Of a stretch of 64,000 nt of DNA, positions 28,594 through 58,982 are shown piece by piece (the first letter of the stretch is position 1; each line of letters opens with the position of its first letter). The notes under the pieces are model-generated. The model worked only from the letters and a program-made list of their open reading frames with translations, was not told the DNA's origin and did no database searches. Both the position numbers and the translations under genes were made by a program. Source of the DNA: Candidatus Latescibacterota bacterium (GTDB lineage: Bacteria; Latescibacterota; UBA2968; UBA8231); the NCBI GenBank assembly GCA_965206595.1, contig OZ242214.1, forward strand, positions 3,776,001 to 3,840,000, read 5' to 3'.

Positions 28594-28651
28594 GGCTGTA
28601 CCCCTGTTCTTGAAGCCCCCTCGGCTGTACCCCTGTTCTTGAAGCCCCCTC
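28594..28651. repeat. Perfect 29-bp tandem duplication
   Basis: GGCTGTACCCCTGTTCTTGAAGCCCCCTC at 28594-28622 and 28623-28651. Confidence 0.9.
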
Positions 28652-28675
28652 GACAGACAAGAGTCAGCCCTCTCG

Positions 28676-36723: not shown

Positions 36724-36914
36724 TTCGCTTGCCTCGCGGCAGGTGATGTCGCGGCAGTGCCGTTTATGGAGAGCGTGAGTGTCCCGTCGCAGAAATATGT
36801 CGCCATTGAGACGCCGATCCATCCCGGCTCACGGGGTCCCAATTTTGTCAATCTATCTCTGCGGCGGAACACCAGGCATTGACGCGGCAGAACTCGCCGA
36901 TCGCCGGTCCGGAC

Positions 36915-41250: not shown

Positions 41251-41284
41251 TCGCAGTTGCCTTCCTCGAACCGGAACGGGGGAC

Positions 41285-41911: not shown

Positions 41912-44900
41912 CTACAACCGGGTCGAGACGATCCAGTCCCTGTGCGCCTTGGCGAACTGGAACACCTCTTTGCTTGCCCGTTTGTCTTCGTACATCTCGA
42001 TCACCCGGTCGTATGTCTCGACTGCATCGCGCCATTGACCGAGGCCTTCCAGACAGACGCCCATGTTGCTCAGCGCGCCCAGCGCACTCTCCGTGTCCGG
42101 ATAGCGCGCGCGAATATCCTCGAAAGAGCTCACGGCGCGCGCGAAATATTGCTTCCTGATGGCCCCCTCCTCCACCGCCTCGGCCGAATCCATCAAGGCG
42201 ACCGCCCGCTCGTAATGATCGTAGGCGATGGCCTCCGTGATCTCGGAGATCAGGCGCGGCACCTGGGCTGCCACTGGATCTTCCGGAAAGCGATCCTGGA
42301 CGAGCTTGTAGGCCAGCATCGCCTCTTCATATGACCCGCGGTTATAGGCATCGTCGGCGAGAGTGAATTGGGCAGCGGCTGCGAATTCGCTCTGCGGATA
42401 GCGTTCGAGGAGTGTTCGGAAAGCTGCCATCGCCTCCGCCTCCCGTTTCAACTCGAGCAGACACCACGCCAGATTGTACTGCGAGTTATCGGCCGTGGTA
42501 TCGTCGGGAAACCTTGTGACAATACGGCTGTAGTAGGGGATGGCAGCTTCGAATTCCCCCAACTGGTAGTGGCTTTCGGCGAGGCCGAACAGGATATCCT
42601 GCAGGGCACGCGCCTGCGGATAGTCGCGCAGCAGCTGTTCGAACATGGTCCAGGCGTCACGGAAATCCCTCAAGCTGTAGTGGGTATTGGCCAGGTAGAA
42701 TCCCACCATCAGACGGTGGTCCGGACCCAGGTCCGCGGCCGCCAGATCCGTGAAGACCTTCCTGGCGCGCTCGAGCTCTCCCCGGTCGAAATAGTGAACG
42801 CCTAGGGTCAACCGCATGTCCGTGGAAAAAAACGAGGCCGGGAACCTGCGCAGGGCCTCCTGAAACACCTTGGCCGCCTCGGCGCTACGGCCCATACGTG
42901 CCAGCGCATCCCCTAGCAGGAAGTAGGCCTTCTCCGCGCGGCCGTACTTCTGGCCCGGTGCCAGCGCATCGTCGAACTGCAGATCGATCAGCTGCCTGGC
43001 GACGACGATCGTCTCCGCGAAGTTGTCGTCCTCGTAGTGGAGATCCATTACGCGCGTCAGGAGAGCGGCCTGTTCCTCGGGGGTCCCCGCCTCGGCGGCC
43101 ATGGCGGCGAGCGTCTTCACCGCCTCGCTGCCGCGGTCCTGCTTCAGGTAGACGAGCGCCAGGGCGTCCTTGGCTGAACGAACCTTGCCCTGTTCCTGTA
43201 CGTTTCCGGCGATCCAGTTGAAGTCCTCTTCCGCAAGACCGTACTGCCCGGCGACAAATGCGGCGTTGCCGCGGCTGAACCGCAACGCCTCTTCCAGGTC
43301 GGCACCGATTGGATAGGTAAGGGCGGCGGTGAAATGGGTTACGGCTGTGCCGTAGTCGTTCAGGCCGCTGTAAGCCTGTCCGAGGAGATAGTTGAAACTG
43401 GCGCGCTGAACGTCCTCGCCCGCCTTCGCCAGACCGGCCTCCAGGACGCGGGCAGCGTGATCGAAGCGACCCGTATTTACCAGGCTGTGCCCGGCGCCCA
43501 GGCGCGACCGTGCGTACAGGGAGGAGGTTTCCGGCACCGCCAGGAAAGCGGTCACAGCGCCGTCAAGGTCGGCCACGGCCTGTTGCGACAGCCCCAGGCG
43601 CATGTGGGCGACGTCGACGTAGTCGCTGGCGGCGTGGTTGTCGAGGAGCTGCCGCGCGCTCGCCGCGGCTTCGCCGTACCTGCCGCGATCGAAGTAGAGC
43701 TCCCCGAGCTGCACGAGGGCCCGGGCGGCCTGGCTCCGGTTTTCCGCCTCGTCGATGATCGCCCGGTATTCCGCCTCTGCCAGGGCAACGGAGTCGTCGC
43801 TTCCCAGAGACTGGTAGGCCAGCGCCCTGTTGAAGCGCGCGTCGAGGAAGTAGGATGACGTTTCATCCATGCACAACGTGTCGTACTGGGCGACGGCCAG
43901 CTGCAGCCACTGCCGGCCCGCACCCGGGCGGGCCTCGGACTCTTCCTCGTCGGCCAGCTGCTGATAGGCGCTGCCGATGCGGTAGCGCACACGGCCCTCG
44001 GGAAACCCGGCGACGTTGGCGATATCGGCGAATCCGTCGAGATAGGTTTCGTACTCCCGCACGGACTCCACGTAGCGGGCCTGCGAAAAGAAACTCTCCG
44101 CCAGGGCATACTGAATGCGCGCCCTCAGCGTCCGGTCGGAGGATTGATCGATCGCCTCCCGGTAAGTGCGGATACTGGCATCGAGATCTCCCCTCTCCCG
44201 ATGCAGGTCGGCCATACGCAGGTACGCCTCTTCGACCAGCTTGCGCTCCGAGCCGAACAGGGTGACCGCCTGCCGGTACGCCTCCAGCCCTTCGTCGTAC
44301 CGTCCCCAGCGAGCATAGGAGGTACCGATGCGGATCTGGGCCTTTGCAGCCAGCTCCAGCGCCGTCTCGTTCACCAGGCCGGCGATCTTCTCCCGCCGTA
44401 TCCGCCGCAACTCCACCTCGGTGAGATTTTCGATCTTCTGCCGGATTATCAACTGGCGGTAGCTGTCTATGGCCCGTGCATACCTGCCCGTCTCCAGGTA
44501 GCACTCGCCGATCTGGAAAAGGCTGCGATCGGCCTGGTACCCGCTGGGGAAACGGGCGAGGAGCCGTTCGAATGCGGAAATCGCCCGGTCGTATTCCCCC
44601 ATCTCGTAGAGCGCCCAACCCGTGTTGTAGTAGCCGACGATGACCTGCGGGTGGTCTGGATAGGCATTGATCAGTGCATCGGCCGCCTCGATGACCTGCG
44701 GAAACTTCCCGGCCTTGAAGTAGAGATCGATGAGCCGTCCGTATGCCAGGACCTTCAGGACTTCGCTGGTCGAACCGTCGATCACCTGTTGAAAAGCGTC
44801 GACAGTCGCTGCAAACGCCTCATCGGCCTGTACCTGCAGTCGTGCCCGCCCGACCTCGTCACCCTCCTCCTCCGCCTGCTGCGCGAAGCCGGCATGGAGC

Positions 44901-45172
44901 TTGGAGAAGGAATTGCCGATCTGGTAGTGGGCGGCTTCCTGGACGGGAAATTCATCATCACCCACGGCGACCTGGATGCCCTCCACGTCCAGGGCCCGGC
45001 TGCGTATCCGCAGGACCGCTTCGTACTTGGTGATCGCCTGATCGTAGGCACCTTCGGCATAGAATCGCTGACCCTCGCGAAAGGTGCTCACCATGTCTTC
45101 CTGGTTGGGCACACGCGAGGCGAGAAAGGTGCCCCCGGCGGTAATCAAAGTCAGCAAAAGAAAGAGGTTCAT
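41912..45172 (-). CDS. Large exported tetratricopeptide-repeat protein (BamD/CpoB-type TPRs)
   Basis: Signal peptide followed by many TPR units with YP/FP-S turns (LLARFPSG, LLERYPQSEFAAAAQFTLA, RYPDTE). Confidence 0.9.
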   Translation of the reverse strand: MNLFLLLTLITAGGTFLASRVPNQEDMVSTFREGQRFYAEGAYDQAITKYEAVLRIRSRALDVEGIQVAVGDDEFPVQEAAHYQIGNSFSKLHAGFAQQAEEEGDEVGRARLQVQADEAFAATVDAFQQVIDGSTSEVLKVLAYGRLIDLYFKAGKFPQVIEAADALINAYPDHPQVIVGYYNTGWALYEMGEYDRAISAFERLLARFPSGYQADRSLFQIGECYLETGRYARAIDSYRQLIIRQKIENLTEVELRRIRREKIAGLVNETALELAAKAQIRIGTSYARWGRYDEGLEAYRQAVTLFGSERKLVEEAYLRMADLHRERGDLDASIRTYREAIDQSSDRTLRARIQYALAESFFSQARYVESVREYETYLDGFADIANVAGFPEGRVRYRIGSAYQQLADEEESEARPGAGRQWLQLAVAQYDTLCMDETSSYFLDARFNRALAYQSLGSDDSVALAEAEYRAIIDEAENRSQAARALVQLGELYFDRGRYGEAAASARQLLDNHAASDYVDVAHMRLGLSQQAVADLDGAVTAFLAVPETSSLYARSRLGAGHSLVNTGRFDHAARVLEAGLAKAGEDVQRASFNYLLGQAYSGLNDYGTAVTHFTAALTYPIGADLEEALRFSRGNAAFVAGQYGLAEEDFNWIAGNVQEQGKVRSAKDALALVYLKQDRGSEAVKTLAAMAAEAGTPEEQAALLTRVMDLHYEDDNFAETIVVARQLIDLQFDDALAPGQKYGRAEKAYFLLGDALARMGRSAEAAKVFQEALRRFPASFFSTDMRLTLGVHYFDRGELERARKVFTDLAAADLGPDHRLMVGFYLANTHYSLRDFRDAWTMFEQLLRDYPQARALQDILFGLAESHYQLGEFEAAIPYYSRIVTRFPDDTTADNSQYNLAWCLLELKREAEAMAAFRTLLERYPQSEFAAAAQFTLADDAYNRGSYEEAMLAYKLVQDRFPEDPVAAQVPRLISEITEAIAYDHYERAVALMDSAEAVEEGAIRKQYFARAVSSFEDIRARYPDTESALGALSNMGVCLEGLGQWRDAVETYDRVIEMYEDKRASKEVFQFAKAHRDWIVSTRL

Positions 45173-45270: not shown

Positions 45271-48200
45271 TCAGTCGTCCTCGAATCCCAGGATGGCGTT
45301 GATGAAGGCAGCGGTGAAGCGCTCCCCCCGGAATTCGTCCGCCGCGGGATCATCGAACTTCTTTGTCCGCAGCCGCACGCCGGCGTTGGTCGAGATGATA
45401 TATCCGAAATACCTCGACAGATTCGTCATCATCAACACGGTGTCGCGCTGCTCGAAGCTCTCTTCCGGTTCGGCGAAATCGGTCACCGAGTAGGGGAACT
45501 TCGACGTAATCCCCTGCACACCGAGCTGAAAACGGGTTCTGGTCGTCAGGCGGTATTCCAGTTTCATCAGGGGAATGAGGTGCCGCTGGTGCGCAACGGG
45601 CAGATCCAGGCTGCGCTTCCACTCCTTCCGGTAGCGGATCTTGAAACCGGAAAAAAGACTCAGGCGATCCCAGATTTTCCAGTTGTAATCGATCCTGTGG
45701 GCCATCGTCCAGCGGCTCAGGCGATCGCTTTCCTGCCCGGTCCCGTCCCAGAGCTCCCCTCCGTGCTGATGGTTGACCTCGACCTTGACCTTGTTGTGCA
45801 TGGCGAGATTCGGCACGGTCCGCCAGCGGGCTTCGGTGAAAAGACGCACCAGGGTGCTGTTCTTGTAGTTTAGCGGATCTTCCAGCGGCTCTTCCTGAAA
45901 CGGCACGATGTTGATGTTGCGGGCCAGTCCCGGGAAGTTGGTTGCCTGAATATCCGCCTGGGTAAGGACCCTGTCGCTGTAGACGCTCAGCGGATCTTCC
46001 ACTCCGTCCCGTATGCGTTCCAGCGACAGCTCGGTGAAGAACCTGCCGATTGTCGGCACCTGCCGATTGTAGTCGAGGCGCGAATACAGAACCTCGCTGG
46101 GCACCGATCCGGCTATCTGTTCGGCGTCCAGCAGCCCCAGCGCCAGGCTCAGACCGGCGAGCGGTTTGTATTTTCCGTACAGGTGCATCCCCCTGAGATC
46201 GGGATCGTAGGGCAGGTCCGCTTCCCAGTCGTTCTCCCGCGAATCGATGAAATCGTTGTGGTTGAAATCGACGCCGTACTCGAAGACCTGGGGGTCGACA
46301 TCATACATCAGGAACGGTTCGAGGTCGTCGGGCTGCTGGTTCAGGTTCCGGTTGGTGTCGGGAATGCCGTCGTTGTCCGCATCGAGCCCAGGGAACACGC
46401 CATCGATATCGTGCTGTCCCTGCTTCTTGTCGAAATAGTTGGTGTACCAGCTGTCCGGATAGCGGTCGTTGTCGTCATTGTCCTCGACGAGCCTGTGAAG
46501 GATGGTGTTGTTGTAGGCGATCGGGGTCCCCGACAGATTGAACTCGTCGGCAGCGATGAAGCTGCGGAATTCCGTGGTGAACAAGGGGCCCATGGAAAAC
46601 AGTTCGCCGCGCAGGTCCCAGCGCCGGAAATCCCGATGCAGGGTCACGTAGTAGGCGTTGTCCGAAATGGTGTGGCGCGCTCCGGGAGTCTGTTCCCGCT
46701 CCAGGGCATTGATGGCGATGGCGTCCTGGGGAACGCGCGGTCCCGGCAGTCCGCTCGGGTACATTGAGAACTGGCTGCCGCGGGCGAACTCGGCGTTGAG
46801 CTCGAATCCCTTGACGACCCCGTAGACATTGGCGCTGGCCAGCCGCAGTCCCGTCGGCACCCCGACCTTTACCCGAACGCGCTTCGGCACCCCGTCCCGG
46901 GGATTGCCCCCGGCGCGGGCGACGGTGCGGAAGAACGGGGCGTAGCGGTAGCGGTCCTGGTGGCTGTCGGGGGGTAGAAACTCCGTCGACCGGGCAATGG
47001 GAATTTCCGACAGTTCAAGCCGGTAGTCGTTGGCCAGGACAAGCTCGACTTCGACCGAGGTTATGAACTGCTGCACGGACTCGAGGTCGATGTAGAGAAT
47101 GCCGTAGGTCTCGCCGTCGAAGGCCTGGGGAAGATCCTCTTTCGTGTACATACCGAGAAAATCGCCGGAGGGCTCGGCCAGTTCGTGGGCGAACTCGGAG
47201 TGCACGGTTTTTCCGCTTTCCTCGTCCACAACATGGTCGGGACCGTGGAGCTTGAAGTCCCTGTAGTAGAGGTGGTCGATGAAAAACGGGAACTCGTAGC
47301 CCCGGTAGAAGACGTCGACGTCGGTGGCGAGGTAGTTTATGTAGGATTCATAGGTGCTGAAGGCCCCGCCCCGGTTGACGGTCTGGTAGTCGTTGGAGGC
47401 CGGCCGCGGAGGCAATCCCTTGCGGTTGCCGTTGCTCAGCAGCTCCTGGACGTATATCTGGCGGTCGTCGCCGCGTTTGTGAAGGTGGACGACAAAGGGC
47501 TCCAACTCCGGGCGCAGGACCCCGTCCACGTAGACGTTGACGTCGTGCAGCACCGGTCCGCCCCGGCCATCCAGAGGCGAGTCATCGAGGATGCGGATGG
47601 CGATCAGTGCCGGCGCCGTCTGCACGGCCCCCGGCCTGCCCTGAAGGCTCTCGAACTTGCTCGCCATGAGCGGCTCGTACTGATGCACGTTGAGAAAGGT
47701 GCCGCCGAAGTTGAGGAACCCGACTTTGCGCTCGTAGTGAGCGCCCAGCATCATGGTCGGAACCCTGGCGTTGATGTCCCCGGCCGTGGACGGGCCCTGG
47801 CCGGAGTTGCGCGAAAAGGGGAGCGTCGAGAACAGTGCCGAGAAACTGTCTTTCCCGGTGCCGGCGTCGACCCTGAGACCGTTCAGATTGGAGAGTTTCA
47901 TCGTCAGCGGGGTCAACGACGTGCGGATCTCGTCCCCGTAGATGAATTTGGCCTGCCAGGCGTCGGTGCCGTCCGTGCCGACTATGACGTGGCCGAAGAG
48001 ACGCTCGAAGGCGTTTCCCGTCTGTCCGTGCCCGCCGCTTTCGCCGATCGCGGAGTAACCCCGCTGCACACCGAGGCCCCGGCGCTCGACCCAGGTAACG
48101 GCCTCGGTCCCGTAGAGCAGAGGGTCTCCCATGGAGTTGTAGTGATACCGGAGATTGCTGCTGAGCTCCGGCCGGCGGGAATAGTTCTCGAATCCGTAGT

Positions 48201-48423
48201 TCGTGTAGGGCACCTCGTCGAACCGGCCCACGAAGGGTTGCTCGAACAGAATCCGCGACGGACCCAGCCCGACCCGCTCCGGTTCTTCCGCCGCCTCCTG
48301 GCCGCGTCCGGACCCGGGGACGAGGAGGAGGAATACCGCGCACAATGCGGCCCTTCCGGCAGCTGCGGACACTGGAGTTTTCGATTCCGCGTCGTTCACG
48401 GGTGCTGAGTCGTCTGTTGCCAC
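45271..48423 (-). CDS. Large predicted outer-membrane beta-protein, paralog 3 of an uncharacterised family
   Basis: Signal-like segment; IYGDEIRTSLTPLT..LNGLRVD, LVEDNDDNDRYPD, DGVFPGLDADNDGIPD, EPFLMYDVDP, RENDWEADLPYDPDLRG. The C-terminal region is made of amphipathic beta-strands. Confidence 0.7.
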   Translation of the reverse strand: MATDDSAPVNDAESKTPVSAAAGRAALCAVFLLLVPGSGRGQEAAEEPERVGLGPSRILFEQPFVGRFDEVPYTNYGFENYSRRPELSSNLRYHYNSMGDPLLYGTEAVTWVERRGLGVQRGYSAIGESGGHGQTGNAFERLFGHVIVGTDGTDAWQAKFIYGDEIRTSLTPLTMKLSNLNGLRVDAGTGKDSFSALFSTLPFSRNSGQGPSTAGDINARVPTMMLGAHYERKVGFLNFGGTFLNVHQYEPLMASKFESLQGRPGAVQTAPALIAIRILDDSPLDGRGGPVLHDVNVYVDGVLRPELEPFVVHLHKRGDDRQIYVQELLSNGNRKGLPPRPASNDYQTVNRGGAFSTYESYINYLATDVDVFYRGYEFPFFIDHLYYRDFKLHGPDHVVDEESGKTVHSEFAHELAEPSGDFLGMYTKEDLPQAFDGETYGILYIDLESVQQFITSVEVELVLANDYRLELSEIPIARSTEFLPPDSHQDRYRYAPFFRTVARAGGNPRDGVPKRVRVKVGVPTGLRLASANVYGVVKGFELNAEFARGSQFSMYPSGLPGPRVPQDAIAINALEREQTPGARHTISDNAYYVTLHRDFRRWDLRGELFSMGPLFTTEFRSFIAADEFNLSGTPIAYNNTILHRLVEDNDDNDRYPDSWYTNYFDKKQGQHDIDGVFPGLDADNDGIPDTNRNLNQQPDDLEPFLMYDVDPQVFEYGVDFNHNDFIDSRENDWEADLPYDPDLRGMHLYGKYKPLAGLSLALGLLDAEQIAGSVPSEVLYSRLDYNRQVPTIGRFFTELSLERIRDGVEDPLSVYSDRVLTQADIQATNFPGLARNINIVPFQEEPLEDPLNYKNSTLVRLFTEARWRTVPNLAMHNKVKVEVNHQHGGELWDGTGQESDRLSRWTMAHRIDYNWKIWDRLSLFSGFKIRYRKEWKRSLDLPVAHQRHLIPLMKLEYRLTTRTRFQLGVQGITSKFPYSVTDFAEPEESFEQRDTVLMMTNLSRYFGYIISTNAGVRLRTKKFDDPAADEFRGERFTAAFINAILGFEDD

Positions 48424-48432
48424 TCTGTGGTC

Positions 48433-51231
48433 CTAGAACGAAGGCCGCAGACCGGCGATCGCCCGGAGAAAGATGCGTGAGTAGTCAACGTCCTGATCCC
48501 TGCGCGAACGGTCGGAGAACCTTCGTGCCCGGCGCTCGAAACCGGCATTGATATTGAGTTGGTAACCGACATAGGATGAGGTGTTCGACACCATGGCTAC
48601 GTAGACCTCCGAATCGAAGTCGGATCCCGGAACAACCTCACTGCGGAAAGTGCTTTTGAGAAAGGGGAATCCCTGGGCGCCCAGCTTTACCGTGGTGCGG
48701 GTCGAGACGGGATATTCGAGGCGCAGAATCGGATAGAAATAGCGCTCGTGGATTTCGAGAACCCGCCGTTCGTCGTCTTCGAGGCGCTGCCGGAGCCATT
48801 TTACCTGTGGAATCACCCGCAGCTGTTTCCACGGACGCCACTCGTAGTCAGCCTTGACGACCACAGCGAGATCGGTGACCGCGTTGTCCGGCTGAATCGC
48901 CGTGCTCTGCTGGAAATTCCTGTCGTACTTGAAGCTCATTTCCAGGTTCAACTTCGGCACGCGGATGTAGCGAACCCGGGTGTAGGTGGTGTTCACCCAA
49001 CTGTCGCGCATCAACAGGGGATCCGGCAGGAGCACGGCGCCGCCCAGCGGGTTGAGCAGTTCCTCCTGCGTCAAGCGAACCAGGGGAACGATGTCGGGCT
49101 CGAAATAGATGGGATTGCGACCCACTCCGAATACGTCGTCCCTGATTTCGTCGCGCACCCGCTTCAACCGTTCCGCGGCGTAGATGTCGATGAGAAACGG
49201 TATGCGACGCTCGTATTCCCAGCGGCCGTACAGCATCTCGGCGCGAGTACCGGCGGAAGCGGCATTCGTTCTGTGGAAACCGACGGTTACGGCCATGCCC
49301 TTGCGCGGACGGAACACGCCGAACAGGTGTCCCCCCCGGCGGTCCGGATCGTAGGGCAGGTCCGCCTTCTGGTCGTCTTCGCGCACGTCGATGACGGCGT
49401 TGTTGTTCATGTCGTCGCCGTACTCGTAGGCGTCGGGACTGACCTCGTAGAGCAGAAAGGGCTCGAAGTAATCAGGCACCCTGTTGACGTTCTCGTTGAT
49501 ATCGGGGCGGCCGTTCTGATCGGCGTCCAGACCGGGGAAGATCCCGTCGGGATCCATGATGTAGCGGCCCCCGGTTATCACGTTTGTGGTCTTGCGCAGA
49601 AAGTAGACGTCCGGGTACTGGTCCTTGTCGTCGTTGTCGTCGACCGTGGGAAACTCGATCGTGTAGGTCCCGTCGGCGAGATTCGGGCCGATCCGGGTGG
49701 GCAGCCGCGGTTCGTGTATGTTTCGCGGATACGAAAACACCGCCAGGGAGCTCGCATACGAGTCGTCCTGCACCGAGAGGGTGGTCGAGTAGTTCTCGTC
49801 AATTCCGAAGACCTCCCCCCCAAGGCTGAACCGATCCCAATCCCGCCGGCCGACGACGAACCAGGCGGGGCTCTGGCTCCTGAACTGACCGCCGCTGGAA
49901 CCAGTGAGGGCCGGGTAGGCGCGATGGTCGAAATTCCTCACGTACTCCGCGTGGAGCAGGTACCCCTTCAAATCCAGATTTATGTGAACACTTGCAAGTG
50001 AGCGGGCCGTCTGGCGGCCGTAGCGCACCCGCACCCGGCGGTAATCGTCCAGGTCTGAAGGCCGGCCCTCCGCCCGGGCGGCGGTGTAGAAATACGTCGC
50101 CGGGTTGGTGGACAACCCGTTGAACACCTCGGACAGCTCGACCTTGTAATCTCCCGCCACATCCATGTCCACCTGGGCCCGGTCGACTACGAGCGAGTCC
50201 GGTCCCTCCATCACGAAAGCGGGCACCCTGAACCAGAACAGCAGGCTGCCCTTTTCCTCTGTCTCGAAATACCCCTGCGTCGTGGGCTCGACGTGTTCGG
50301 CGTTGATGTCCAGGCGGCCGGAACTGTCGGTGATGACCGGCGGTATGATCGTGCGGTCCGGGTGCGCGGTCACCGTGAGCGTCAGGGCGTCTGGGGAAAG
50401 TTTGTCGTACTGGCCACGGCTGTGCACGAGCTCACGGCCGTTGATCAGGACGGCGATGCGGCGCACCCGCACGCCGGCATTGTCGTCGGGATCCTGGTCG
50501 GCGACGCGCACCACGAGCCACTCGGGGGGGTGGATGGTAGCGGGCAAGCTGCCGGTGATACTGCTTTCGCCAATCTCCCGGAAGCTGTCCGTGCGGAACT
50601 GGTTGACCCAGCTGACACCGACGTCCAGCCTCGTCCACTGGGCCCGCAGGTCGCCGCCCAGCAGGTAGGTCGCCAGGCGCGGACGGGAGGTAGCGTACTG
50701 TCGGCCGTGAGCGCTCTGATCGGCGTTTCCGAAGGACTCGAAAATCGGACGGTCGACGCGCGATCCGACCAGGATCAGGGAAACCCTTTCTGATCGGGAG
50801 TCGAAGCGAATCCCGTTCATCGCCGCCAGATCAAGGGTCATGGGCGTGAACTTGGTGCGGATCCTGTCGCCGATCATCAAGCGCGTGCTGACCCCCTTGT
50901 AGCCGTCCTCGGCGATGACCAGCCGGTTCAGGTAGTCCTGGTACAACCTGGGTTTGCTGATGAGACTTCCGGGCTCGGGTGCGATCGAATGGAATTGCTG
51001 CAGCTCGAAGACATTGGTGCCGCTCATCACGAACTGCCCGAGGTTGTCGAACTGTGGCCTGCGATCCTTGCCGTAGAGAACCGTCTCGTAGGGCCAGTAG
51101 CCTTCGTAGGCGTAGTTGACGTAGGGCTCACCCGCGCGGTACAGCATTTGTGCTTCCAGGGCTTGGCTCCCGGGGCAGCCAAGCAACAGCGCGAGACAGA
51201 TGGCGGCGATGTGCCGCCGCTCCAGAAACAT
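48433..51231 (-). CDS. Large predicted outer-membrane beta-protein, paralog 2
   Basis: Signal peptide; MIGDRIRTKFTPMTL..MNGIRFD, VDDNDDKDQYPD, DGIFPGLDADQNGRPD, EPFLLYEVSP, REDDQKADLPYDPDRRG. Ends IFLRAIAGLRPSF. Confidence 0.7.
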   Translation of the reverse strand: MFLERRHIAAICLALLLGCPGSQALEAQMLYRAGEPYVNYAYEGYWPYETVLYGKDRRPQFDNLGQFVMSGTNVFELQQFHSIAPEPGSLISKPRLYQDYLNRLVIAEDGYKGVSTRLMIGDRIRTKFTPMTLDLAAMNGIRFDSRSERVSLILVGSRVDRPIFESFGNADQSAHGRQYATSRPRLATYLLGGDLRAQWTRLDVGVSWVNQFRTDSFREIGESSITGSLPATIHPPEWLVVRVADQDPDDNAGVRVRRIAVLINGRELVHSRGQYDKLSPDALTLTVTAHPDRTIIPPVITDSSGRLDINAEHVEPTTQGYFETEEKGSLLFWFRVPAFVMEGPDSLVVDRAQVDMDVAGDYKVELSEVFNGLSTNPATYFYTAARAEGRPSDLDDYRRVRVRYGRQTARSLASVHINLDLKGYLLHAEYVRNFDHRAYPALTGSSGGQFRSQSPAWFVVGRRDWDRFSLGGEVFGIDENYSTTLSVQDDSYASSLAVFSYPRNIHEPRLPTRIGPNLADGTYTIEFPTVDDNDDKDQYPDVYFLRKTTNVITGGRYIMDPDGIFPGLDADQNGRPDINENVNRVPDYFEPFLLYEVSPDAYEYGDDMNNNAVIDVREDDQKADLPYDPDRRGGHLFGVFRPRKGMAVTVGFHRTNAASAGTRAEMLYGRWEYERRIPFLIDIYAAERLKRVRDEIRDDVFGVGRNPIYFEPDIVPLVRLTQEELLNPLGGAVLLPDPLLMRDSWVNTTYTRVRYIRVPKLNLEMSFKYDRNFQQSTAIQPDNAVTDLAVVVKADYEWRPWKQLRVIPQVKWLRQRLEDDERRVLEIHERYFYPILRLEYPVSTRTTVKLGAQGFPFLKSTFRSEVVPGSDFDSEVYVAMVSNTSSYVGYQLNINAGFERRARRFSDRSRRDQDVDYSRIFLRAIAGLRPSF

Positions 51232-51233
51232 GG

Positions 51234-53933
51234 TCAGCCTATGAAGACCTTGAAGAAGTACTCCACGAATCCCACTGACGGCCGCTGCGATCCCGTGAAG
51301 CTGGTGGAGGTGCGGTAGCCCCCGAACAGAAGGGCGAGATCGTAGCCGCGGTGATTGCTCCTGTTCTGCAGAAACGCCGTGTACGTCCGGCGGCGGAAAT
51401 CCCGCTCGGGACTTGTCGGGTCGAGAGATTTCTCCGGCAGGAAGGGCAGACCTTGAACGCCGGTTTTCAGGTCCGTGTGCGGACCGATGCGGCAGTCGAT
51501 TCGCAGAACAGGGATGATCCAGCGCGTCTGCCGGTCGGGGATGGCCCGCTCGGGAAACTTGCTGCGCTGAAAAACATGCTTGAACTGCGGCAGGATGGTG
51601 AACCGCTTCAGGCGCCAGGTATAGTCGGCCATGTTGACCATGGCGAAGTGGGTGATGGTTCCCGGCGCCGCCGTCTTCGGATCGTCAAGGGACGGCCCCG
51701 TCAGATCGACATAGTTGAAGGAGACGACATTGCGAAAATTCAAGCCTTCGATGGTCTTCAGCTCGGTTTCGAAATGGGTCAGATTGTCGACGCTGTCCCG
51801 GCGCTGGAGCAGGTCCGGCTCCAACTCGTAGCGGCTCGAACGGGTCAGACCGGAGGGCAGCGTTTCCGTTTCGATGAACTGGTAGATGGTGTTGCGAATA
51901 TCGTCCTGCACCCACTTGATCCGGTGGTTAAGACGAATTTCACCCAGCTCTTCCCAAGTGCGCTCGTACCGACCTTCGAGATAACCGGCATCGTTGGACA
52001 AACCCAGAGCCGGCTGGCGGATGCGATAGGCCCCGAAACGCACCTTCGTGCGCGCCGTCGGCCTGACCGAGGCGAAGGCGTGCAGGCCGCGATGGTCAGC
52101 CGGATAGAGGTAATCCGGCAGATTGTCGTTTTCCCGCAGGTCGGCGATGCCGTTGTTGTTGAAATCGTCGCCGAACACCATTTCGGGCGGATCCACGTAG
52201 TATCCCAGAAACGGGGTAAATGCATTTCCGCCCACGTTCAGGTCGAGGATCCCGTCGTGGTTGAGGTCCAGCCCGGGAAAGACCCCGTAGCCTTCACCCG
52301 AAGAGCGCGTGAAAAAAGCAAGCGGATCCCCGTGTTCGGTCCAGTCGGGCCAGGCATCCAGATCGTCGTTGTCCTCGACTAGGGCGAAACGTTCGTAAAC
52401 CTTGCCGCCGACCGTGTGTCCGATAGCGGACCCGCGGAAGATCGAGAAATCGGTAGTGTAGTCAGCGGGGACATCGAACCACTCGATGCCGACGTCCGCT
52501 TGCGAACTGACTGGTCTAAGGAGGTTGAGGTAGAAAGTGGAACTGTCGCGATCGTGGCGGCCGCCGCCGGGTGAGGGCACCTTGAGAAACCGGGTGCTCC
52601 GGGCGAACTCCCCCTGGAGACGGCTTCCCAGGATTTTGGCTTCGAAGTCGAGCCCCAGTATTCCCAGCCCGGTTGGAAACCCGTAGCGGAAGGTGACGCG
52701 GCGGAGGTTGGAGTTGCTGCCTGGATTGCCGCTGGCCCGCAACGTGTTGTTCCAGTCGTAGAAGAGATCACCGTATTCGGTTCCGGAATCGAACAGCGGT
52801 ACCTGCATCCCTCCGACCACGTCGACGCTGTAGTCGTTGGCCAGAATGGCCTCGAAGCGAACGTCTTTCGTCGCTTCCGGAACCTCGTACTCGTAAAAGA
52901 TCACGTCGGTGCCGTTGGCTGCCAGGGGAGCGCTTCCCGAGGCCGGCGCCGCTTCCAGCGAGATCCGATCCAGCAAGATTGGAAAAAAACTTTCGTTGCT
53001 TGCGGCGACGGCTGCCGGCAACCAGGGTCCATTGCGCCGGATGTGCTCCACGTCTCCCGGACTCAACGGAATGGTGTTGCTGCGATCGAAAGTGATGGGG
53101 ATGTGCTCGAGGAGGCGCTCGATCCTTCCCACCCGGAGCTGCTCCACCGCCTCGCCGTCGGCAAACATCGTCACCCCGTAGATCGCCGCCCCCGGTGCCG
53201 TGTCGTGTGGCGCATCATCGGTAAAGAAGACGAACACCCGGCGCAGCCCGCCGTCCCGGACCACTCCCGGGACATCCCCCTTCAAGCCGTTGAGATTGGC
53301 ACTGGCCTCACCGTCGAAGCGGTGAGCGTTGACGTAGGTCGTTCCTATCCTGAGGAGGTCTCCGATCTGGCTCTCCCAGTGAGCGCCGAACAGGGTGGTA
53401 CCGAAAACTCGGCGCTGTTCGATAAACGCGTCGCTCGGCACATAGGAGCTGGGAGCTGTGAGCGGATCTCGCAGATGCGTGGCGATTACGCTGAATCTGC
53501 TTTTGCGCGAAGAGCCGTCCCAGCGGATCCCGTTGAAATTCGGGATGTTCAAGGTCATGGGAGTGAAGGTGGTGCGCAGGTGCTCACCGATTATCAGGCG
53601 GGTGGACCAGCGGCCGAACCCCTCGTCGGCGATGACGAGCTTCTGGAAGAAATTGTTATAGCCCCCGCTGCGCGCTTCGAAGCTGCCTATCCGGCCCGGG
53701 GCATTGCGGCGTACCTCGCTGAATTCCAGGATATCGACGCCATCGATCAGAAGGTCGCCGAAGATGTCGAAACGGCGGTTCTCCCCTTCGAAATCGTAGT
53801 CCCGGTAACCGTTGGCGCCGTAGTTCTCGAATACCTCGTTTGCCCACTGTGTGCGAAAGTCCCTGGACAGGAACTGGGCATCGGACGAGAAAGCTGACAG
53901 GAAAAGACAGAAAGACAGGCTGAGAAGACGCAT
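51234..53933 (-). CDS. Large predicted outer-membrane beta-protein, paralog 1
   Basis: Signal peptide; IIGEHLRTTFTPMTL..FNGIRWD, LVEDNDDLDAWPD, GVFPGLDLNHDGILD, PFLGYYVDP, RENDNLPDYLYPADHRG. Ends VEYFFKVFIG. Confidence 0.7.
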   Translation of the reverse strand: MRLLSLSFCLFLSAFSSDAQFLSRDFRTQWANEVFENYGANGYRDYDFEGENRRFDIFGDLLIDGVDILEFSEVRRNAPGRIGSFEARSGGYNNFFQKLVIADEGFGRWSTRLIIGEHLRTTFTPMTLNIPNFNGIRWDGSSRKSRFSVIATHLRDPLTAPSSYVPSDAFIEQRRVFGTTLFGAHWESQIGDLLRIGTTYVNAHRFDGEASANLNGLKGDVPGVVRDGGLRRVFVFFTDDAPHDTAPGAAIYGVTMFADGEAVEQLRVGRIERLLEHIPITFDRSNTIPLSPGDVEHIRRNGPWLPAAVAASNESFFPILLDRISLEAAPASGSAPLAANGTDVIFYEYEVPEATKDVRFEAILANDYSVDVVGGMQVPLFDSGTEYGDLFYDWNNTLRASGNPGSNSNLRRVTFRYGFPTGLGILGLDFEAKILGSRLQGEFARSTRFLKVPSPGGGRHDRDSSTFYLNLLRPVSSQADVGIEWFDVPADYTTDFSIFRGSAIGHTVGGKVYERFALVEDNDDLDAWPDWTEHGDPLAFFTRSSGEGYGVFPGLDLNHDGILDLNVGGNAFTPFLGYYVDPPEMVFGDDFNNNGIADLRENDNLPDYLYPADHRGLHAFASVRPTARTKVRFGAYRIRQPALGLSNDAGYLEGRYERTWEELGEIRLNHRIKWVQDDIRNTIYQFIETETLPSGLTRSSRYELEPDLLQRRDSVDNLTHFETELKTIEGLNFRNVVSFNYVDLTGPSLDDPKTAAPGTITHFAMVNMADYTWRLKRFTILPQFKHVFQRSKFPERAIPDRQTRWIIPVLRIDCRIGPHTDLKTGVQGLPFLPEKSLDPTSPERDFRRRTYTAFLQNRSNHRGYDLALLFGGYRTSTSFTGSQRPSVGFVEYFFKVFIG

Positions 53934-53942
53934 GGAGCCCGG

Positions 53943-56090
53943 CTAATACACCATGCCCACGACACCCGCAGCGGTTTCGGCATCGGGCTCGATATCCACG
54001 ACCAGACGGTACAGGTAGAGTCCCGGAGGAAGCAGCTCGCCGCCCTGATCGCGTCCGTCCCATGAGAAGGGAAGTCCGGTCCGTCCGCCCGGGCCTGGCA
54101 CATAGTAACCGGCATCCAGGCGCTGGTCGGGCAGGGTCCGGACCAGAGACCCGCCAAGATCATAGATCCCGACCTGCACCGGTGCGTCGGACACGCGGCC
54201 CAGAATGAATCCGAGGCTGAACCTGTCGTTGATCCCGTCATCGTTCGGCGAGAAGACCGCAGGGAAAGGGTGCACATCGCTGAGAATGGAGAGAGCGAAG
54301 CTCGTTGCCGCCGAGACCACCGAATAGGGCTCTCCCGTCAGCGGATCCACTCCTTCCCGCTGCTGTACGGAGAGAGGAGAGTTGGAGTCGGGTGCGTAGA
54401 GCAACCCCTGGAATTCATGACTGGCAGCAAGCAGCCGGGTCGTGAAGGGGATTTCGAGTTCCAGGCTGGCGCTGATCGGGGGATCGAAGGCGATAACCAG
54501 CGAGTCAGCCGTCGCGTAGGTGCCCGCGGCATCGATGCCGACCTCTCCGCTCACCGCCGGGATATCGAGCTGTGCCGGCCATGGCGTCAGGATGACGAGC
54601 CGTTGGACGCCGGCGTCGTCATCTCCGATTTCCAGGTCGAGGGAATAGGTGAACGTGGAATCGACCCCGATCGACACCAGCGACGGCGCGATCGAGGCCA
54701 AGGCGTCGGTTGCTGCCAGCGGTCCTCTGTTGTAGAAGAAAACAAGGCTGTCGAGCTGCGGACTCGCGAAAGGATCGGGTGTCCGCATGCGCAGTTGGAA
54801 CTGGAGAAAGCGCCGCGGTTCGGGTACGGTCAGGCGAGTCTCCGGATCCGGACTCCAGGCCGACCAACCGCTCCAGTTCTCCCCGTCGTCACCGCTGCGG
54901 AACTGGACTGCTATTTCAGCAGTGGCCGAAACGGAATCGAAGCGCACGGCTCGGTCATAATTTTTACGCTCGGGGACACCGAAATCCAATGGTGGAGACA
55001 GATAAGTCCCCCTCTCATCGAACCCGTTTCCGAAGACTTCCAGCTCCCCCACTCGCGGAGCGGCGTTGCGATTGGCGAATTCGGTGACCACCATGCGGAC
55101 ATAGCGCGCGATGATGGTCGCAAAATCGACGGCGGTCTCACGGAAGTCGGTGATCTGGTTCCGGGAGCCCACATCGAGGTAGCTCACGCCATCCTTGCTC
55201 ACCAGAACACTATAGCCGCGCAGCGAGTTGTCTTCGTAGCTTCCGGAGCTCCCCGGGGGCTGCGTTATCACCTTGACGCGGTTGATGGGAAACAGGCGCC
55301 CGAGGTCGACCTCGACCTCATCGAACAGCACCCTGCCCCCCTTTGCATAACTGACCGGGGAACCGATATCGCCGTCGATGAGCTTTAGGTCCTTCGAGAA
55401 CGTGTTGAAGGCGAGATTCTGTCCCTCAAAAGAACGCAGCCGCAGGCCGCCGCGACTGCCGTCGAGACCCCCGGGGAATCCCGCCACGGATCGCGCTCTG
55501 GTGAGATCGAGGTCGGCGAACTCGGCAAATCCGCCCGGGTCGAGGCTGCCGGCCTGGACCGAACGCCAAGTGACTGCCGCTTCCTTGCCGTCCACGTCTT
55601 CGCTATGACTGGACAGCTTGTTGAGCCGCAGCGTCATCCAGTCGGCGCCGTCTTCGTTGTCGAGAGCGAAGTCGGTCCAGAACCACGGTGTCAGGCGGTC
55701 GGTGGGAGAACTCGGCAGGAGTACGCCCTCGGCCTCCAGCACGACGAACATCCCATAGCCTCCGGAGGTCCCGTCGTGCTCGACGACCGCAGCGACCATG
55801 TTGGTACGCCTGTTGAACGGAACATCGTAGACCTCAACCGATCCGGGGTCGTCGTCCGTTCCAACCAGATCGCCGTTGAGATAGAGGCTGTAGCGATCCG
55901 CAGCGGCGATGCGGATGCGGCCATCGACAGCATCCGCGAATTCGGCGAAACCCAGGTAAAAGGTTGTGGTTGCCCACGTATCGACGGAAGCGCGTTCGAG
56001 GATCTGGGAGGAGGCCTGCGAAGCGATTGCCGCCACAAGCAAGGCACTCGGAAGGCGCCACCCGGCTCTATGTAGTGGTCCGGTTCCCAA
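53943..56090 (-). CDS. Secreted protein with lectin-like and discoidin (F5/8 type C, CBM32-like) domains and C-terminal FlgD-Ig/CHU_C-like domain
   Basis: Likely TTG start near 56090 before the signal peptide (WRLPSALLVAAIASQASSQ). Motifs IAAADRYSLYLNG, VEVDLG..PINRV...YSVLVSKDG...ARYVRM...ELEVFG and FSPNDDGIND...IYDLGGSLVRTL...WDGRDQGGELLPPGLYLY. Confidence 0.75.
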   Translation of the reverse strand: MGTGPLHRAGWRLPSALLVAAIASQASSQILERASVDTWATTTFYLGFAEFADAVDGRIRIAAADRYSLYLNGDLVGTDDDPGSVEVYDVPFNRRTNMVAAVVEHDGTSGGYGMFVVLEAEGVLLPSSPTDRLTPWFWTDFALDNEDGADWMTLRLNKLSSHSEDVDGKEAAVTWRSVQAGSLDPGGFAEFADLDLTRARSVAGFPGGLDGSRGGLRLRSFEGQNLAFNTFSKDLKLIDGDIGSPVSYAKGGRVLFDEVEVDLGRLFPINRVKVITQPPGSSGSYEDNSLRGYSVLVSKDGVSYLDVGSRNQITDFRETAVDFATIIARYVRMVVTEFANRNAAPRVGELEVFGNGFDERGTYLSPPLDFGVPERKNYDRAVRFDSVSATAEIAVQFRSGDDGENWSGWSAWSPDPETRLTVPEPRRFLQFQLRMRTPDPFASPQLDSLVFFYNRGPLAATDALASIAPSLVSIGVDSTFTYSLDLEIGDDDAGVQRLVILTPWPAQLDIPAVSGEVGIDAAGTYATADSLVIAFDPPISASLELEIPFTTRLLAASHEFQGLLYAPDSNSPLSVQQREGVDPLTGEPYSVVSAATSFALSILSDVHPFPAVFSPNDDGINDRFSLGFILGRVSDAPVQVGIYDLGGSLVRTLPDQRLDAGYYVPGPGGRTGLPFSWDGRDQGGELLPPGLYLYRLVVDIEPDAETAAGVVGMVY

Positions 56091-56239: not shown

Positions 56240-56273
56240 AAAAAAGGTGCCACCGGGAACTACCGGTGGCACC
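56240..56273 (-). terminator. Intrinsic terminator after the first gene of the envelope operon
   Basis: Perfect 11-bp stem GGTGCCACCGG/CCGGTGGCACC with a 6-nt loop, followed on the minus strand by TTTTTT, 20 bp after the stop at 56294. Confidence 0.85.
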
Positions 56274-56293
56274 CCGAAACAACTGCAAGCTCC

Positions 56294-58312
56294 TTATTTG
56301 AGGAAGGTGACCTTCTTGCTGAGGCTCAGATTGGGAGCTTCGATCTTGTAGATGTACACGCCGCTGGACACTTCCACCCCGTCGGCATTCCTGCCGTCCC
56401 AGGTGACCTCGAAATTGCCGGCGGGCAAGCTCTCATCAACCAGGTCGACGACGAACTGGCCTTGAGTGTTGAAGACTTTGACCGACACCGGCGCTTCCCA
56501 CGGAAGGGAGAAACGGATAGTGGTTTCCGGGTTGAAAGGATTTGGAAAAGCATCGCCCAGGGCAGCGGCATTCGGCGTGGCATCGCCTTCGACCTCCTCG
56601 ACCGCAGTCGCCGGGTCCCCGAGGCTTACGCGCTTCTGATCGTACGGCAACTGCACGAGCCAGTGGAAAGAATAGTAGCTGACGATCTGGTCCTCGGTCG
56701 GGGGCGGTGCCCAGTCATTCGTTCTCTGGCCGGGGTCATTCTCTCCGACGCTGATGTACATGCCGTCCCAAGCACTGTCGTCGTGATCGACGATCATCGT
56801 CCACTGCGGGTAGGAACTGGGGATATTCGTCGGCTGCAGCAGGAACAGGCCCGAGCCGTCGCCGCCGAGCACGGAACCGTAATCGGTGAGGTTCACGGCG
56901 GAGTGACCGATGGAGATCCAACCCCATTTGGTCGAGTTGAACCCGTACTTGGCCCCGTCGCCCGAGGTATTGCCGTAGGTGGGCTCGGCGCCGAAGCTGC
57001 CCGGGACATACATATCGCCGAAGCCGTCGCCGTTGCGGTTGATCCATCTGATGCCACCGCTGTCGTAATCCATGCTCATGACGATGGAGGTGTGGTGACC
57101 CGAGAGGGTCAGGCCGGTTGGATCGTTCTTGCCGGCGTAGTCTCTGGCTGACCAGCCAGGTCCGCCGACGCGGTCGCTGCCGTTGTTGTCATACAGAAAG
57201 ATGTCGGACAGATCCCACAGATCGAGATTTTCACCACTGTCCAGATCCCAGACCGCAACCGTGCCCACTGTGCCGTCTACGCCCGTGGTGGTGTAAATCT
57301 TGTTGTTGCCGGGATCGACTGCGACTCCGTACTTGCGCGTCGGCTGAAGCTCTCTGTAGTCGATGAAACCGTTGACGGCCCCATGGTCCGCACCCCAGCT
57401 CTCGTCGACGGAAGCCGACTGTGTTGCCGGATCGTAAGAGCCCCTGAAGAGCAGTCCGCCACCCTGATTCTGGCCGTTGGCAACGTACGTCCGCATATCG
57501 TCGGTGACGTTGCCGCTGGTTCCCAACGGAGTCATGTCGAAGACGTGAAACGGCAGGGGGCGGTCGCTCTCCGCCCACCAGAACACGTGCCGGCCGACGG
57601 GAATGTCGCCCGCGTCGGGGGCTGAATTGTGGATTTCGGTGCGGTCGATGTACGTCGCCGCTTCCGGGTTGTTGATGAAGTCGTTGTTCATGTCGACGAC
57701 CCACTCGTAGGGCCGCGTCAGCGTCTCGGCGTCGGGATCGATGATGAGCATTTCGCCCGTTCCCTGCCTGCCGGGAGCATAACCGACGATGTGCGCCGTG
57801 GCGTCGGCGTCGAAGGCTGCGAGGAACAGGTCGTACGAACCCCGGGACACGACGTTCCCTTCCATGTCGCGGCCGTTCCAGACAATGGTGTTGTCGCCGG
57901 TGTCGAAACGTTCGCCGGAAGACCTGTAGACCAACAGGTCCACGTTCTGGTAAACATGCCAGCCCGGCTCGGCGTAATCTCCGAGAACGTGCGGAGCCGG
58001 TCCTTCACCTGTGATGGTCAGCGGCGGATTCTCTCCCTTGGTGTAGATGATCAGCCACACGGTAGCGGAACCGCTCTGCGTTCCTTCGAGCGTGAAGGGA
58101 ATGGACAGATCGGAACCGTCGAATGCGTAGTCTTCTATTGGTGAAAGACCGCTGATGACGACCGTCTCTGGACGGCCGCCGCTGGTCATGTCGTTGAGCC
58201 CCAGACTTCCGTCCCCCACGAAGCGCGAGAAACGCTCTTCCTGGGCATTCGACACACCCGCAAGGAGCACCAGGGATGCCGCTCCTGCTCCAATTATGCG
58301 ATACAAAGACAT
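56294..58312 (-). CDS. Secreted protein with N-terminal FlgD-Ig-like domain, central beta-propeller-like region and C-terminal FlgD-Ig/T9SS type A-like domain
   Basis: AGGAGG RBS and signal peptide (VSNA|Q). N-terminal GDNTIVWNGRDMEGNVVSRGSYDLF. C-terminal FPNPFNPETTIRFSLP...VFNTQGQFVVDLVD...VTWDGRNADGVEVSSGVYIYKI...KKVTFLK. Confidence 0.85.
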   Translation of the reverse strand: MSLYRIIGAGAASLVLLAGVSNAQEERFSRFVGDGSLGLNDMTSGGRPETVVISGLSPIEDYAFDGSDLSIPFTLEGTQSGSATVWLIIYTKGENPPLTITGEGPAPHVLGDYAEPGWHVYQNVDLLVYRSSGERFDTGDNTIVWNGRDMEGNVVSRGSYDLFLAAFDADATAHIVGYAPGRQGTGEMLIIDPDAETLTRPYEWVVDMNNDFINNPEAATYIDRTEIHNSAPDAGDIPVGRHVFWWAESDRPLPFHVFDMTPLGTSGNVTDDMRTYVANGQNQGGGLLFRGSYDPATQSASVDESWGADHGAVNGFIDYRELQPTRKYGVAVDPGNNKIYTTTGVDGTVGTVAVWDLDSGENLDLWDLSDIFLYDNNGSDRVGGPGWSARDYAGKNDPTGLTLSGHHTSIVMSMDYDSGGIRWINRNGDGFGDMYVPGSFGAEPTYGNTSGDGAKYGFNSTKWGWISIGHSAVNLTDYGSVLGGDGSGLFLLQPTNIPSSYPQWTMIVDHDDSAWDGMYISVGENDPGQRTNDWAPPPTEDQIVSYYSFHWLVQLPYDQKRVSLGDPATAVEEVEGDATPNAAALGDAFPNPFNPETTIRFSLPWEAPVSVKVFNTQGQFVVDLVDESLPAGNFEVTWDGRNADGVEVSSGVYIYKIEAPNLSLSKKVTFLK

Positions 58313-58944: not shown

Positions 58945-58982
58945 GTAGTGGTAAAAGTAGTGGTAAAAAGTAGTGGTAAAAA
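58945..58982. repeat. Three tandem copies of GTAGTGGTAAAA(A)
   Basis: Units at 58945-58956, 58957-58969 and 58970-58982. Confidence 0.9.

Follow-up and report, generated by a model that had tools for sequence, protein, structure and literature searches.

Three paralogous genes for predicted outer-membrane barrels of a Latescibacterota bacterium lie in a conserved ExbBD/TonB-like/TPR gene context

The contig OZ242214.1 of Candidatus Latescibacterota bacterium (assembly GCA_965206595.1) carries three large consecutive genes whose products match no Pfam or NCBIfam family, which raises the question of what these proteins form and what they do. The genes, here called A, B and C from upstream to downstream, lie on the minus strand of a 64,000-nucleotide stretch (positions 3,776,001 to 3,840,000 of the contig) that is referred to as the window. 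An earlier note on this DNA described them as three tandem paralogs encoding large beta-proteins with an Asp-rich core, and suggested either a split giant barrel like the SprA translocon or three pores. The tandem arrangement holds. The three head-to-tail open reading frames (ORFs) together exactly span positions 45271–53933, with gaps of 9 nt (C–B) and 2 nt (B–A), and their products are 27–32% identical to one another (pairwise BLASTP E-values of 4e-71, 6e-74 and 4e-42). The earlier note missed the conserved context of ExbBD, TonB-like and tetratricopeptide repeat (TPR) genes, which is the most informative feature of the locus. We propose that the barrels belong to a trans-envelope machine, driven by the proton-motive force (pmf), that gates non-canonical plugged barrels, probably for import; our confidence in this explanation is just short of even.

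The seven motifs reported for the three proteins are all present and collinear, and two of the patterns required correction: the second motif reads YG in C instead of IG, and the spacing from P to G in the last motif is five residues and not four. The Asp-rich core, 100–106 amino acids (aa) long, contains 16–23% Asp compared with 8% in the whole proteins and includes the loops DADNDGIPD, DADQNGRPD and DLNHDGILD. A loop of the form [DN]x[DN]x[DN]GxxD is found in 167 of 180 full-length family proteins. The core is the most conserved part of the barrel protein, with 26 of 87 columns conserved at 85% or more against 48 of 733 elsewhere. Loops of the DxDxDG type belong to a class that binds Ca2+, and the core loops may do the same, judging from their sequence. 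The strand-rich tail behind the core is also present; its length is 281–303 aa rather than approximately 250 aa, and some 12 further membrane-type strands upstream of the core had been overlooked.

The structure of mature A was modelled with AlphaFold2 from 118 aligned sequences; the folds of B and C are deduced from their homology to A. The model has a mean predicted local distance difference test score (pLDDT) of 88.2 and a predicted template-modelling score (pTM) of 0.88, with low confidence in residues 1–26 only. DSSP assigns 25 candidate membrane strands to it: eight precede an inserted beta-sandwich (mature residues 211–397), four lie between this domain and the Asp-rich segment (residues ~500–594), and 13 follow. 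About 45 residues precede the first strand, and the chain stops at the last one, which is amphipathic with conserved Phe and Gly. Substrates of the BAM machinery are marked by an amphipathic last strand that ends in an aromatic residue; a terminal F, W or Y is absent from all 40 A proteins and present in 13 of 41 B and 17 of 54 C proteins and in 8 of 14 proteins of the S type introduced below. All top fold matches of A are outer-membrane barrels, none of them close, in agreement with the membrane location originally suggested; such matches define the class and not the family. The Foldseek rows comprise MtrB in first place, SlpA, LptD and TonB-dependent transporters (TBDTs), with query TM-scores (TMq) of at most 0.27. 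A wide fold search places SlpA at the top (Z 14.2, root-mean-square deviation (rmsd) 8.0, 409 residues aligned). Residues 79–851 of A superpose on the FimD usher (Z 13.2, rmsd 4.9 Å, 329 residues aligned, 8–10% identity), and porins and OpdK match at similar Z over partial ranges. Of the three folds named for comparison in the earlier note, LptD and the TBDTs appear and cover part of the model, and SprA chain A is not among the listed rows, which give one chain per entry and cannot exclude the family. Searches of PDB sequences with three family alignments and one family protein gave a best E-value of 0.09. The inserted domain, predicted alone, is a beta-sandwich (pLDDT 83) for which no chain reached Z ≥5 (best Z 4.9) and no Foldseek match was obtained at E 0.001. 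A porin–cytochrome conduit of the MtrB type was rejected, although MtrB is the first Foldseek row, because there is no multiheme neighbour: none of the 772 called ORFs in the 72 loci analysed below contains two or more CxxCH motifs.

Residue covariation was computed from 399 of 418 family rows (effective number of sequences 254). It recovers the antiparallel pairing of consecutive strands 3–25, with weaker links (scores ~5) across the two insertions. Covariation thus counts 23 sequentially paired strands, and DSSP adds one or two at the N-terminal side; A is predicted to be a single-chain outer-membrane barrel of at least 23, probably 24–25 strands. The strongest long-range pairs connect the Asp-rich core with the polar wall of the barrel: N574–K654 (Z 12.9), Y559–D751, A578–S719, G558–Q808 and D570–E634. 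According to column hydropathy, the core-paired wall positions are on the non-lipid face. This covariation with residues that face the lumen makes an internal plug, inserted in mid-chain, the most likely identity of the core. The TBDT rows align A from residues ~530–550 onto TBDT chain residues 55–102, which we take to be the plug region of these transporters. An N-terminal hairpin (residues 33–46) covaries with strands 3–5 and may form a small second plug in addition to the mid-chain one.

The family is not restricted to the window. A search with B returned 427 representatives at 50% identity (E up to 0.001), and at least 582 family matches were confirmed in a genome scan; no tblastn match was found in plasmids or phages. 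Named homologues come mostly from Candidatus Latescibacterota or from metagenome-assembled genomes labelled Gemmatimonadetes. For the analysis of gene order, the best 80 matches by similarity to B were taken, which gave 71 loci (L numbers below) and a sample biased towards loci that contain B. The record titles of these loci name mainly Latescibacterota and also KSB1, Zixibacteria and Zhuqueibacterota, and single family records are labelled Myxococcales, Nitrospinota, Handelsmanbacteria and Cytophagia. One contig, OZ242318, holds five family loci. At L052 (positions 11923–14590) a family gene is broken into two ORFs by a frameshift or a sequencing error. No description of the barrel family was found in open-access full text; supplements of outer-membrane-protein surveys could list members. 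The proteins make up a family without a name, of large predicted outer-membrane barrels whose plug is arranged differently from that of TBDTs.

Trees were built from 155 near-full-length family genes and from a 76-row subset dereplicated at 70% identity. In the latter, clades A, B and C received Shimodaira–Hasegawa approximate likelihood ratio test (SH-aLRT) values of 98, 100 and 100. The clade labels were taken from the first tree, in which C was weakly supported (0.57), so that gene order serves as an independent test. The order A-B-C is found in 36 of 36 loci holding all three genes. Of the 42 loci with B, 40 have A immediately upstream of it, and the other two begin at a contig end. C follows B in 38 of the 42 loci, adjacent in 29 and at a distance of 2–6 kb in nine; three of the remaining four are cut by contig ends, and L030 is an A-B locus lacking C. 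Genes in the same position of different loci are 39–45% identical, neighbours within one locus 30–32%, and the A, B and C distances correlate over the 36 loci (Spearman 0.76–0.88). The triplet has thus been duplicated as a unit; the correlation is no proof of physical contact. The expectation that three stable clades always co-occur is borne out as far as the clades and their order are concerned and fails for the co-occurrence. Thirteen loci carry S-type barrels in place of A-B-C, mostly as one gene (there are two barrel genes in L047 and additional pieces in L052 and L063). Orphan C copies arranged in tandem are found at L058, L065 and L068. In a divergent subgroup of the C clade (L056, L048, L061, L062 and L064), neither A nor B accompanies the gene within the stretch retrieved; at L056 the gene precedes genes that resemble, by eye, those of type IV pilus assembly.

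These data bear on the possibility that A, B and C are each an arc of one pore of ~72–75 strands. The fixed order and adjacency of A-B(-C), their correlated divergence and the lack of covariation between the last and the first strands of a chain would all suit such a split barrel. However, the FimD barrel has 24 strands, and its superposition on A implies that one A chain follows nearly the full circumference of a barrel, unlike a third of a giant pore; the monomer model curves like a 24-stranded barrel over most of its length. Furthermore, every chain has its own plug segment, and the 13 S-type loci keep the partner genes of the cluster around an unsplit barrel. No fused form of A, B and C was found among the best 150 of the 427 representatives (the longest of which has 1057 aa) or among proteins of 1832–5000 aa, which is a weak test. 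A split giant barrel is accordingly very improbable, and a hetero-oligomer of three separate pores is plausible. Under the explanation that we favour, a single barrel would be ancestral, one triplication in Latescibacterota would have given rise to A, B and C, and the triplet was afterwards multiplied as one block; the simplest reason would be that the three proteins form one side-by-side assembly in which C may be exchanged.

What the barrels may do is suggested by their neighbours. Partner genes were counted in 72 loci (the 71 and the window) within flanks of up to 10 kb, so the counts are lower bounds. The most constant partners are a secreted discoidin protein (55 loci), a TPR protein of ~1080 aa (54), a DUF4159 protein (49), a lipoprotein (42) and a protein with a tail like those of type A substrates of a type IX secretion system (T9SS) (38). 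ExbB (24), a DUF5683 protein (19), a small lipoprotein (16), ExbD (14) and a further secreted protein (12) are less frequent; ExbD is encoded by two genes in ten loci and by one in four. The 13 S-type loci retain the same partners (discoidin 13, TPR 13, lipoprotein 12, DUF4159 11, ExbB 7). A PorV/PorP-like barrel gene, below the NCBIfam cut-off, is present in six loci and stands directly before the barrel gene in KSB1 and Zixibacteria loci. The features of the window are compiled in Table 1.

Table 1. Barrel genes, their subregions and the associated genes of the window
Feature	Coordinates	Strand	Description	Basis
First cluster gene	56294..58312	-	Secreted protein ending in a FlgD-Ig / T9SS type A-like domain; 38/72 loci have a homologue	Pfam/NCBIfam, loci
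Hairpin	56244..56275	-	13-bp hairpin followed by T-run after the first gene; probable attenuating terminator; 8/26 comparable loci pass a strict automatic test	
Discoidin gene	53943..56090	-	Secreted; contains a discoidin domain (F5/8 type C, galactose-binding-like) and ends in a T9SS type B-like tail; 55/72 loci	
Barrel paralog A	51234..53933	-	899 aa; signal peptide, predicted outer-membrane barrel of ~24–25 strands, inserted extracellular beta-sandwich, mid-chain Asp-rich plug	Model of A; clade A
Inserted beta-sandwich of A	52686..53246	-	Inserted between strands 8 and 9; placed on the extracellular side by strand parity; structural searches gave no clear match (best Z 4.9)	Model
Asp-rich core of A	52080..52379	-	Predicted luminal plug between strands 12 and 13	Motifs, covariation
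Barrel paralog B	48433..51231	-	932 aa; fold inferred from full-length homology to A	Homology; clade B
Asp-rich core of B	49327..49644	-		Motifs
Barrel paralog C	45271..48423	-	1050 aa; longer inserted domain; fold inferred by homology	Homology; clade C
Asp-rich core of C	46183..46488	-		Motifs
TPR gene	41912..45172	-	1086-aa TPR protein with N-terminal hydrophobic segment; homologue in 54/72 loci	
DUF5683 gene	41285..41848	-	DUF5683 protein; 19/72 loci	
Small lipoprotein gene	40867..41340	-	Small putative lipoprotein; 16/72 loci; one homologue matches fn3 weakly (E 0.008, under the cut-off)	
DUF4159 gene	39614..40870	-	TonB/TolA-like protein: one N-terminal transmembrane helix, 117-aa Pro/Lys/Arg-rich linker, C-terminal DUF4159; 49/72 loci	
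Lipoprotein gene	38829..39617	-	Lipoprotein of no named family, short form in the window; 42/72 loci	
Last cluster gene	37897..38832	-	Secreted protein; 12/72 loci; weak FlgT_C match in one homologue (E 0.04)	
exbB	27780..28532	+	Gene of the exbB/tolQ family, orthologous to the exbB that relatives carry in the cluster (72.5% to that of L041); displaced 9.4 kb and inverted	

The cluster itself lacks exbB and exbD in the window; no exbD was detected anywhere in the window, and the orphan exbB is followed by a perfect 29-bp tandem duplication at 28594–28652. The Pro/Lys/Arg-rich linker of the DUF4159 proteins measures 112–139 aa. The transmembrane helix of these proteins carries the motif [SAG]xxxH, which we take to be of the TonB/TolA type, in 19 of 42 scored homologues (10 of 52 could not be scored), among them 13 of 13 from S-type loci. 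In the open-access literature, DUF4159 has one mention, a passing one in an excerpt of PMC4702930. The TPR protein has no lipobox in any of 40 full-length homologues or in the window copy. The lipoprotein has no PDB sequence match and is C-terminally extended in 16 of 43 copies; the AgmX/PglI domain (TonB_C-like) was matched above cut-off in all four extended copies tested. A complex prediction of the L050 barrel, in two segments, with its lipoprotein scored 0.01, which is no evidence either way. For the discoidin gene, TTG at 56090 is the probable start, and the frame is open from 56288; the hairpin between this gene and the first one suggests, from sequence, a higher expression of the first gene, and hairpins like it stand behind the first gene in many relatives. 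Three copies of a 12–13-bp repeat at 58945–58982, ~630 bp upstream of the first cluster gene in a divergent intergenic region, are a possible operator. Judged by eye, Gln is the first residue of the predicted mature forms of A, B, C and the two secreted proteins encoded upstream, which resembles the pyroglutamate 'Q-rule' of Bacteroidota. In L037, L042, L044 and L045, genes for NurA, a HAS-barrel protein and HerA lie downstream of the single-barrel cluster, probably reflecting the synteny of close relatives.

We propose that A, B and C are each a single-chain barrel of ~24–25 strands, as modelled for A, which would be shut from inside by its Asp-rich, probably metal-stabilised plug and capped by the extracellular beta-sandwich. 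The barrels would be the outer-membrane end of a machine belonging to the Tol/Exb/Agl class. ExbB–ExbD may turn proton flow into movement of the inner-membrane TonB-like DUF4159 protein, and the TPR protein and the lipoprotein may pass this movement to the periplasmic face of the barrels, where it would shift the plug. The gene linkage is observed; each physical contact in this chain is a prediction. The N-terminal residues 1–26 of the barrel, conserved and modelled with low confidence, are a candidate only for a TonB box. The most likely task of the machine would be to take up, with energy input, solutes that are large or scarce, for instance fragments of glycans or peptides, which the co-encoded discoidin and other surface proteins might capture.

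In this respect the barrels may work like a TBDT, but they do not belong to that family, since strand number and plug position differ. The systems, including SusCD, have in common a plugged outer-membrane barrel linked to ExbB/ExbD and to a membrane-anchored, Pro-rich transducer, as seen in the above counts and in the window exbB, as well as surface binding partners and many paralogues per genome. A TBDT barrel has 22 strands, against at least 23 and probably 24–25 predicted here, and its cork is N-terminal, whereas the main plug proposed here is Asp-rich and inserted in mid-chain. No N-terminal Plug or TonB_dep_Rec domain was matched by Pfam or NCBIfam in A, B, C or 29 homologues. In addition, the transducer ends in DUF4159 instead of TonB_C, and the ~1080-aa TPR protein and three fixed paralogues are peculiar to the system described here. 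Beyond the TBDTs, the barrel system lacks defining features of Agl-Glt, Tol-Pal, SprA, SlpA/OmpM, the ushers and MtrB; neither TolB nor Pal was matched among the cluster genes of the window or the recurrent neighbour clusters scanned (singleton neighbours were outside the scan).

Import is favoured because several loci occur per genome, with five on contig OZ242318, because tandem orphan C copies stand beside genes for a glycoside hydrolase, an amidohydrolase and DUF6785 proteins, and because the most constant partner carries a domain of a sugar-binding type. The genes of sugar-acid catabolism that surround the window cluster and the glycan-degrading lifestyle predicted for Latescibacterota (PMC4454575, in excerpt) point in the same direction. 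Several observations weigh against this explanation. The [SAG]xxxH histidine motif is missing in 23 of 42 scored DUF4159 copies, including that of the window, and ExbB is present in just 24 of 72 loci, partly owing to the 10-kb flank limit. The inserted domain of A has no recognisable binding fold, its best match being at Z 4.9. Covariation gives no pairing of strand 25 with strand 1 or 2, so that closure of the barrel and the count of 24 or 25 strands are provisional; the model of A and the covariation share sequences and are not independent. No substrate-specific enzyme or regulator is conserved beside the A-B-C loci. The largest such cluster, DUF6785, recurs at nine of 72 loci, including those with orphan C copies; DUF6785/DUF6784 proteins could be inner-membrane transporters. 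Finally, the ~1080-aa TPR protein and the two ExbD genes of ten loci would, by analogy, suit force transmission of the Agl-Glt kind no less well than TonB import as it is known.

The Agl-Glt machinery of Myxococcus (AglRQS, GltG/J, GltD/E, GltA/B/H and CglB) indeed offers parallels, drawn here from excerpts of PMC5349195, PMC9946355 and PMC3169522. In a similar force machine, the three different barrels would form a platform that holds or moves adhesins exported by the T9SS, in adhesion, gliding or surface remodelling. A motor of ExbB and two ExbD proteins would pull on it by way of the TonB-like and TPR proteins, while the plugs stay shut. The components compare well: a TolQ/ExbB-type gene with two TolR/ExbD-type genes in ten loci, a long TPR protein of the periplasm, encoded at 54 of 72 loci (~1080 aa against 1191 aa for GltD in an excerpt of PMC3169522), an above-cut-off match to the AgmX/PglI domain of GltG/GltJ, three different barrels that may form a hetero-oligomer as excerpts of PMC9946355 describe for GltA/B/H, and a surface protein, here the discoidin protein with a type B-like tail, which adjoins the PorV/PorP-like barrel gene in six loci. 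This is a likeness by parts. GltA/B/H, which go together with GltK/GltC, measure 209–275 aa (PMC3169522, in excerpt) and are thus 3–4 times shorter than the 850–1050-aa plugged barrels of the present family, whose best-conserved part is the large plugged lumen, a feature that a mere anchor could do without. The AgmX/PglI domain resides in an inner-membrane transducer there, but here a lipoprotein carries it, in no more than 16 of 43 copies, the window copy not being one of them; the surface proteins here carry T9SS-like tails; no Glt barrel match and no NCBIfam Glt equivalog was obtained at cut-off; and the orphan C copies lie amid catabolic genes. A force machine of this kind is hence considered unlikely.

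The T9SS-like tails of the two upstream proteins, one of type A and one of type B, raise a further possibility, namely that the barrels are protein export pores, an ExbBD-powered alternative to the T9SS translocon through which the FlgD-Ig and other tailed neighbours leave the cell. Ushers have their plug inserted mid-chain, and A resembles FimD/PapC in barrel size (329 residues at 4.9 Å) and plug placement. The PorV/PorP-like gene directly before the barrel in KSB1 and Zixibacteria loci would also fit. Type B tails bind PorP/SprF barrels (PMC11205867, in excerpt), and a TonB-dependent transporter is reportedly required for protein secretion in Myxococcus (PMC6434023, in excerpt). Yet neither the presence of up to five loci in one genome nor that of orphan C copies in tandem would be required of a general translocon. 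The plug of the ushers is a beta-sandwich rather than a set of Asp-rich loops, sequence identity is 8–10%, and no usher, chaperone or pilin match was found in the window proteins, the recurrent neighbours or 29 homologues. T9SS-tailed proteins normally use SprA, a single chain of ~2400 aa with 36 strands that is powered by GldLM. The likeness to SprA/Sov lies in the context, which includes the Fibrobacterota–Chlorobiota–Bacteroidota (FCB) group, adjacent proteins that end in T9SS-like tails, and genes for a PorV/PorP-like barrel and a TPR protein; the barrels themselves, with 850–1050 aa, are linked to ExbBD and match no SprA family. A search for Latescibacter together with type IX secretion retrieved no paper from the open-access literature. 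Export through these barrels thus appears quite unlikely.

The Asp-rich plug may also be compared with SlpA of Deinococcus, for which excerpts of PMC9388160 describe a trimer whose pore insertions hold metal sites coordinated by Asp, a precedent for metal-stabilised luminal segments. The barrels could then be a passive SlpA/OmpM-like scaffold or porin trimer, and the motor genes would be neighbours with another task. SlpA is the best row of the wide fold search, and SlpA_C was matched weakly in six of 29 homologues (E 2.6e-6 to 3e-4, 20–27 bits against a cut-off of 35) over ~90 residues or about four strands; three of the 29 had been picked because they already carried that label. SlpA, on the other hand, is a homotrimer of 30 strands with a surface-layer homology (SLH) domain and a coiled coil. 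No SLH match was found in the three proteins and the 29 homologues, and the model of A is free of a coiled coil, as is every scanned member. Moreover, three candidate phyla and many paralogous loci retain the linkage with TPR, DUF4159, lipoprotein and ExbB genes. A passive scaffold is therefore held to be improbable.

The barrels sit in a conserved pmf-coupled cluster in three uncultured lineages of the FCB group, and the single-barrel cluster of KSB1 and Zixibacteria represents its minimal version. If the pmf-driven gating machine that we favour is correct, ExbBD motors can gate barrels beyond the classical receptors with 22 strands, DUF4159 can be assigned the role of a transducer tip, and the fixed A-B-C set is a case in which a membrane complex with a single type of subunit came to have three. 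There would also be a hint at how Latescibacterota take up substrates or attach to surfaces. The outputs known for the Tol/Exb/Agl proton motor are TonB import, Tol-Pal and Agl-Glt. A bolder form of the proposal would add a fourth: a DUF4159-tipped transducer and a TPR rod that spans the periplasm might drive an obligate heterotrimer of three different 24–25-stranded barrels, gated by calcium-locked plugs in mid-chain and working with T9SS-displayed surface proteins, as a hybrid of myxobacterial and Bacteroidota parts and a signature envelope machine of Latescibacterota in which C is swapped for specificity. This form is rather doubtful.

The remainder of the window contains no Rfam or tRNA features. 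A low-GC island (0.50 against ~0.63) at 12001–14000 has short or broken ORFs and, by eye, an ankyrin-like fragment. Two DUF6785/DUF6784 membrane proteins are encoded at 19423–21592 and 60443–62377 (+). An insertion sequence-like transposase (helix-turn-helix and DDE_3, two overlapping frames) occupies 21673–22882 (+) and includes a near-perfect 137-bp duplication at 21980–22243. Amid the genes of sugar-acid catabolism, positions 36013–36822 (−) encode a homologue of AAC(3)-family acetyltransferases that scores below all NCBIfam cut-offs.

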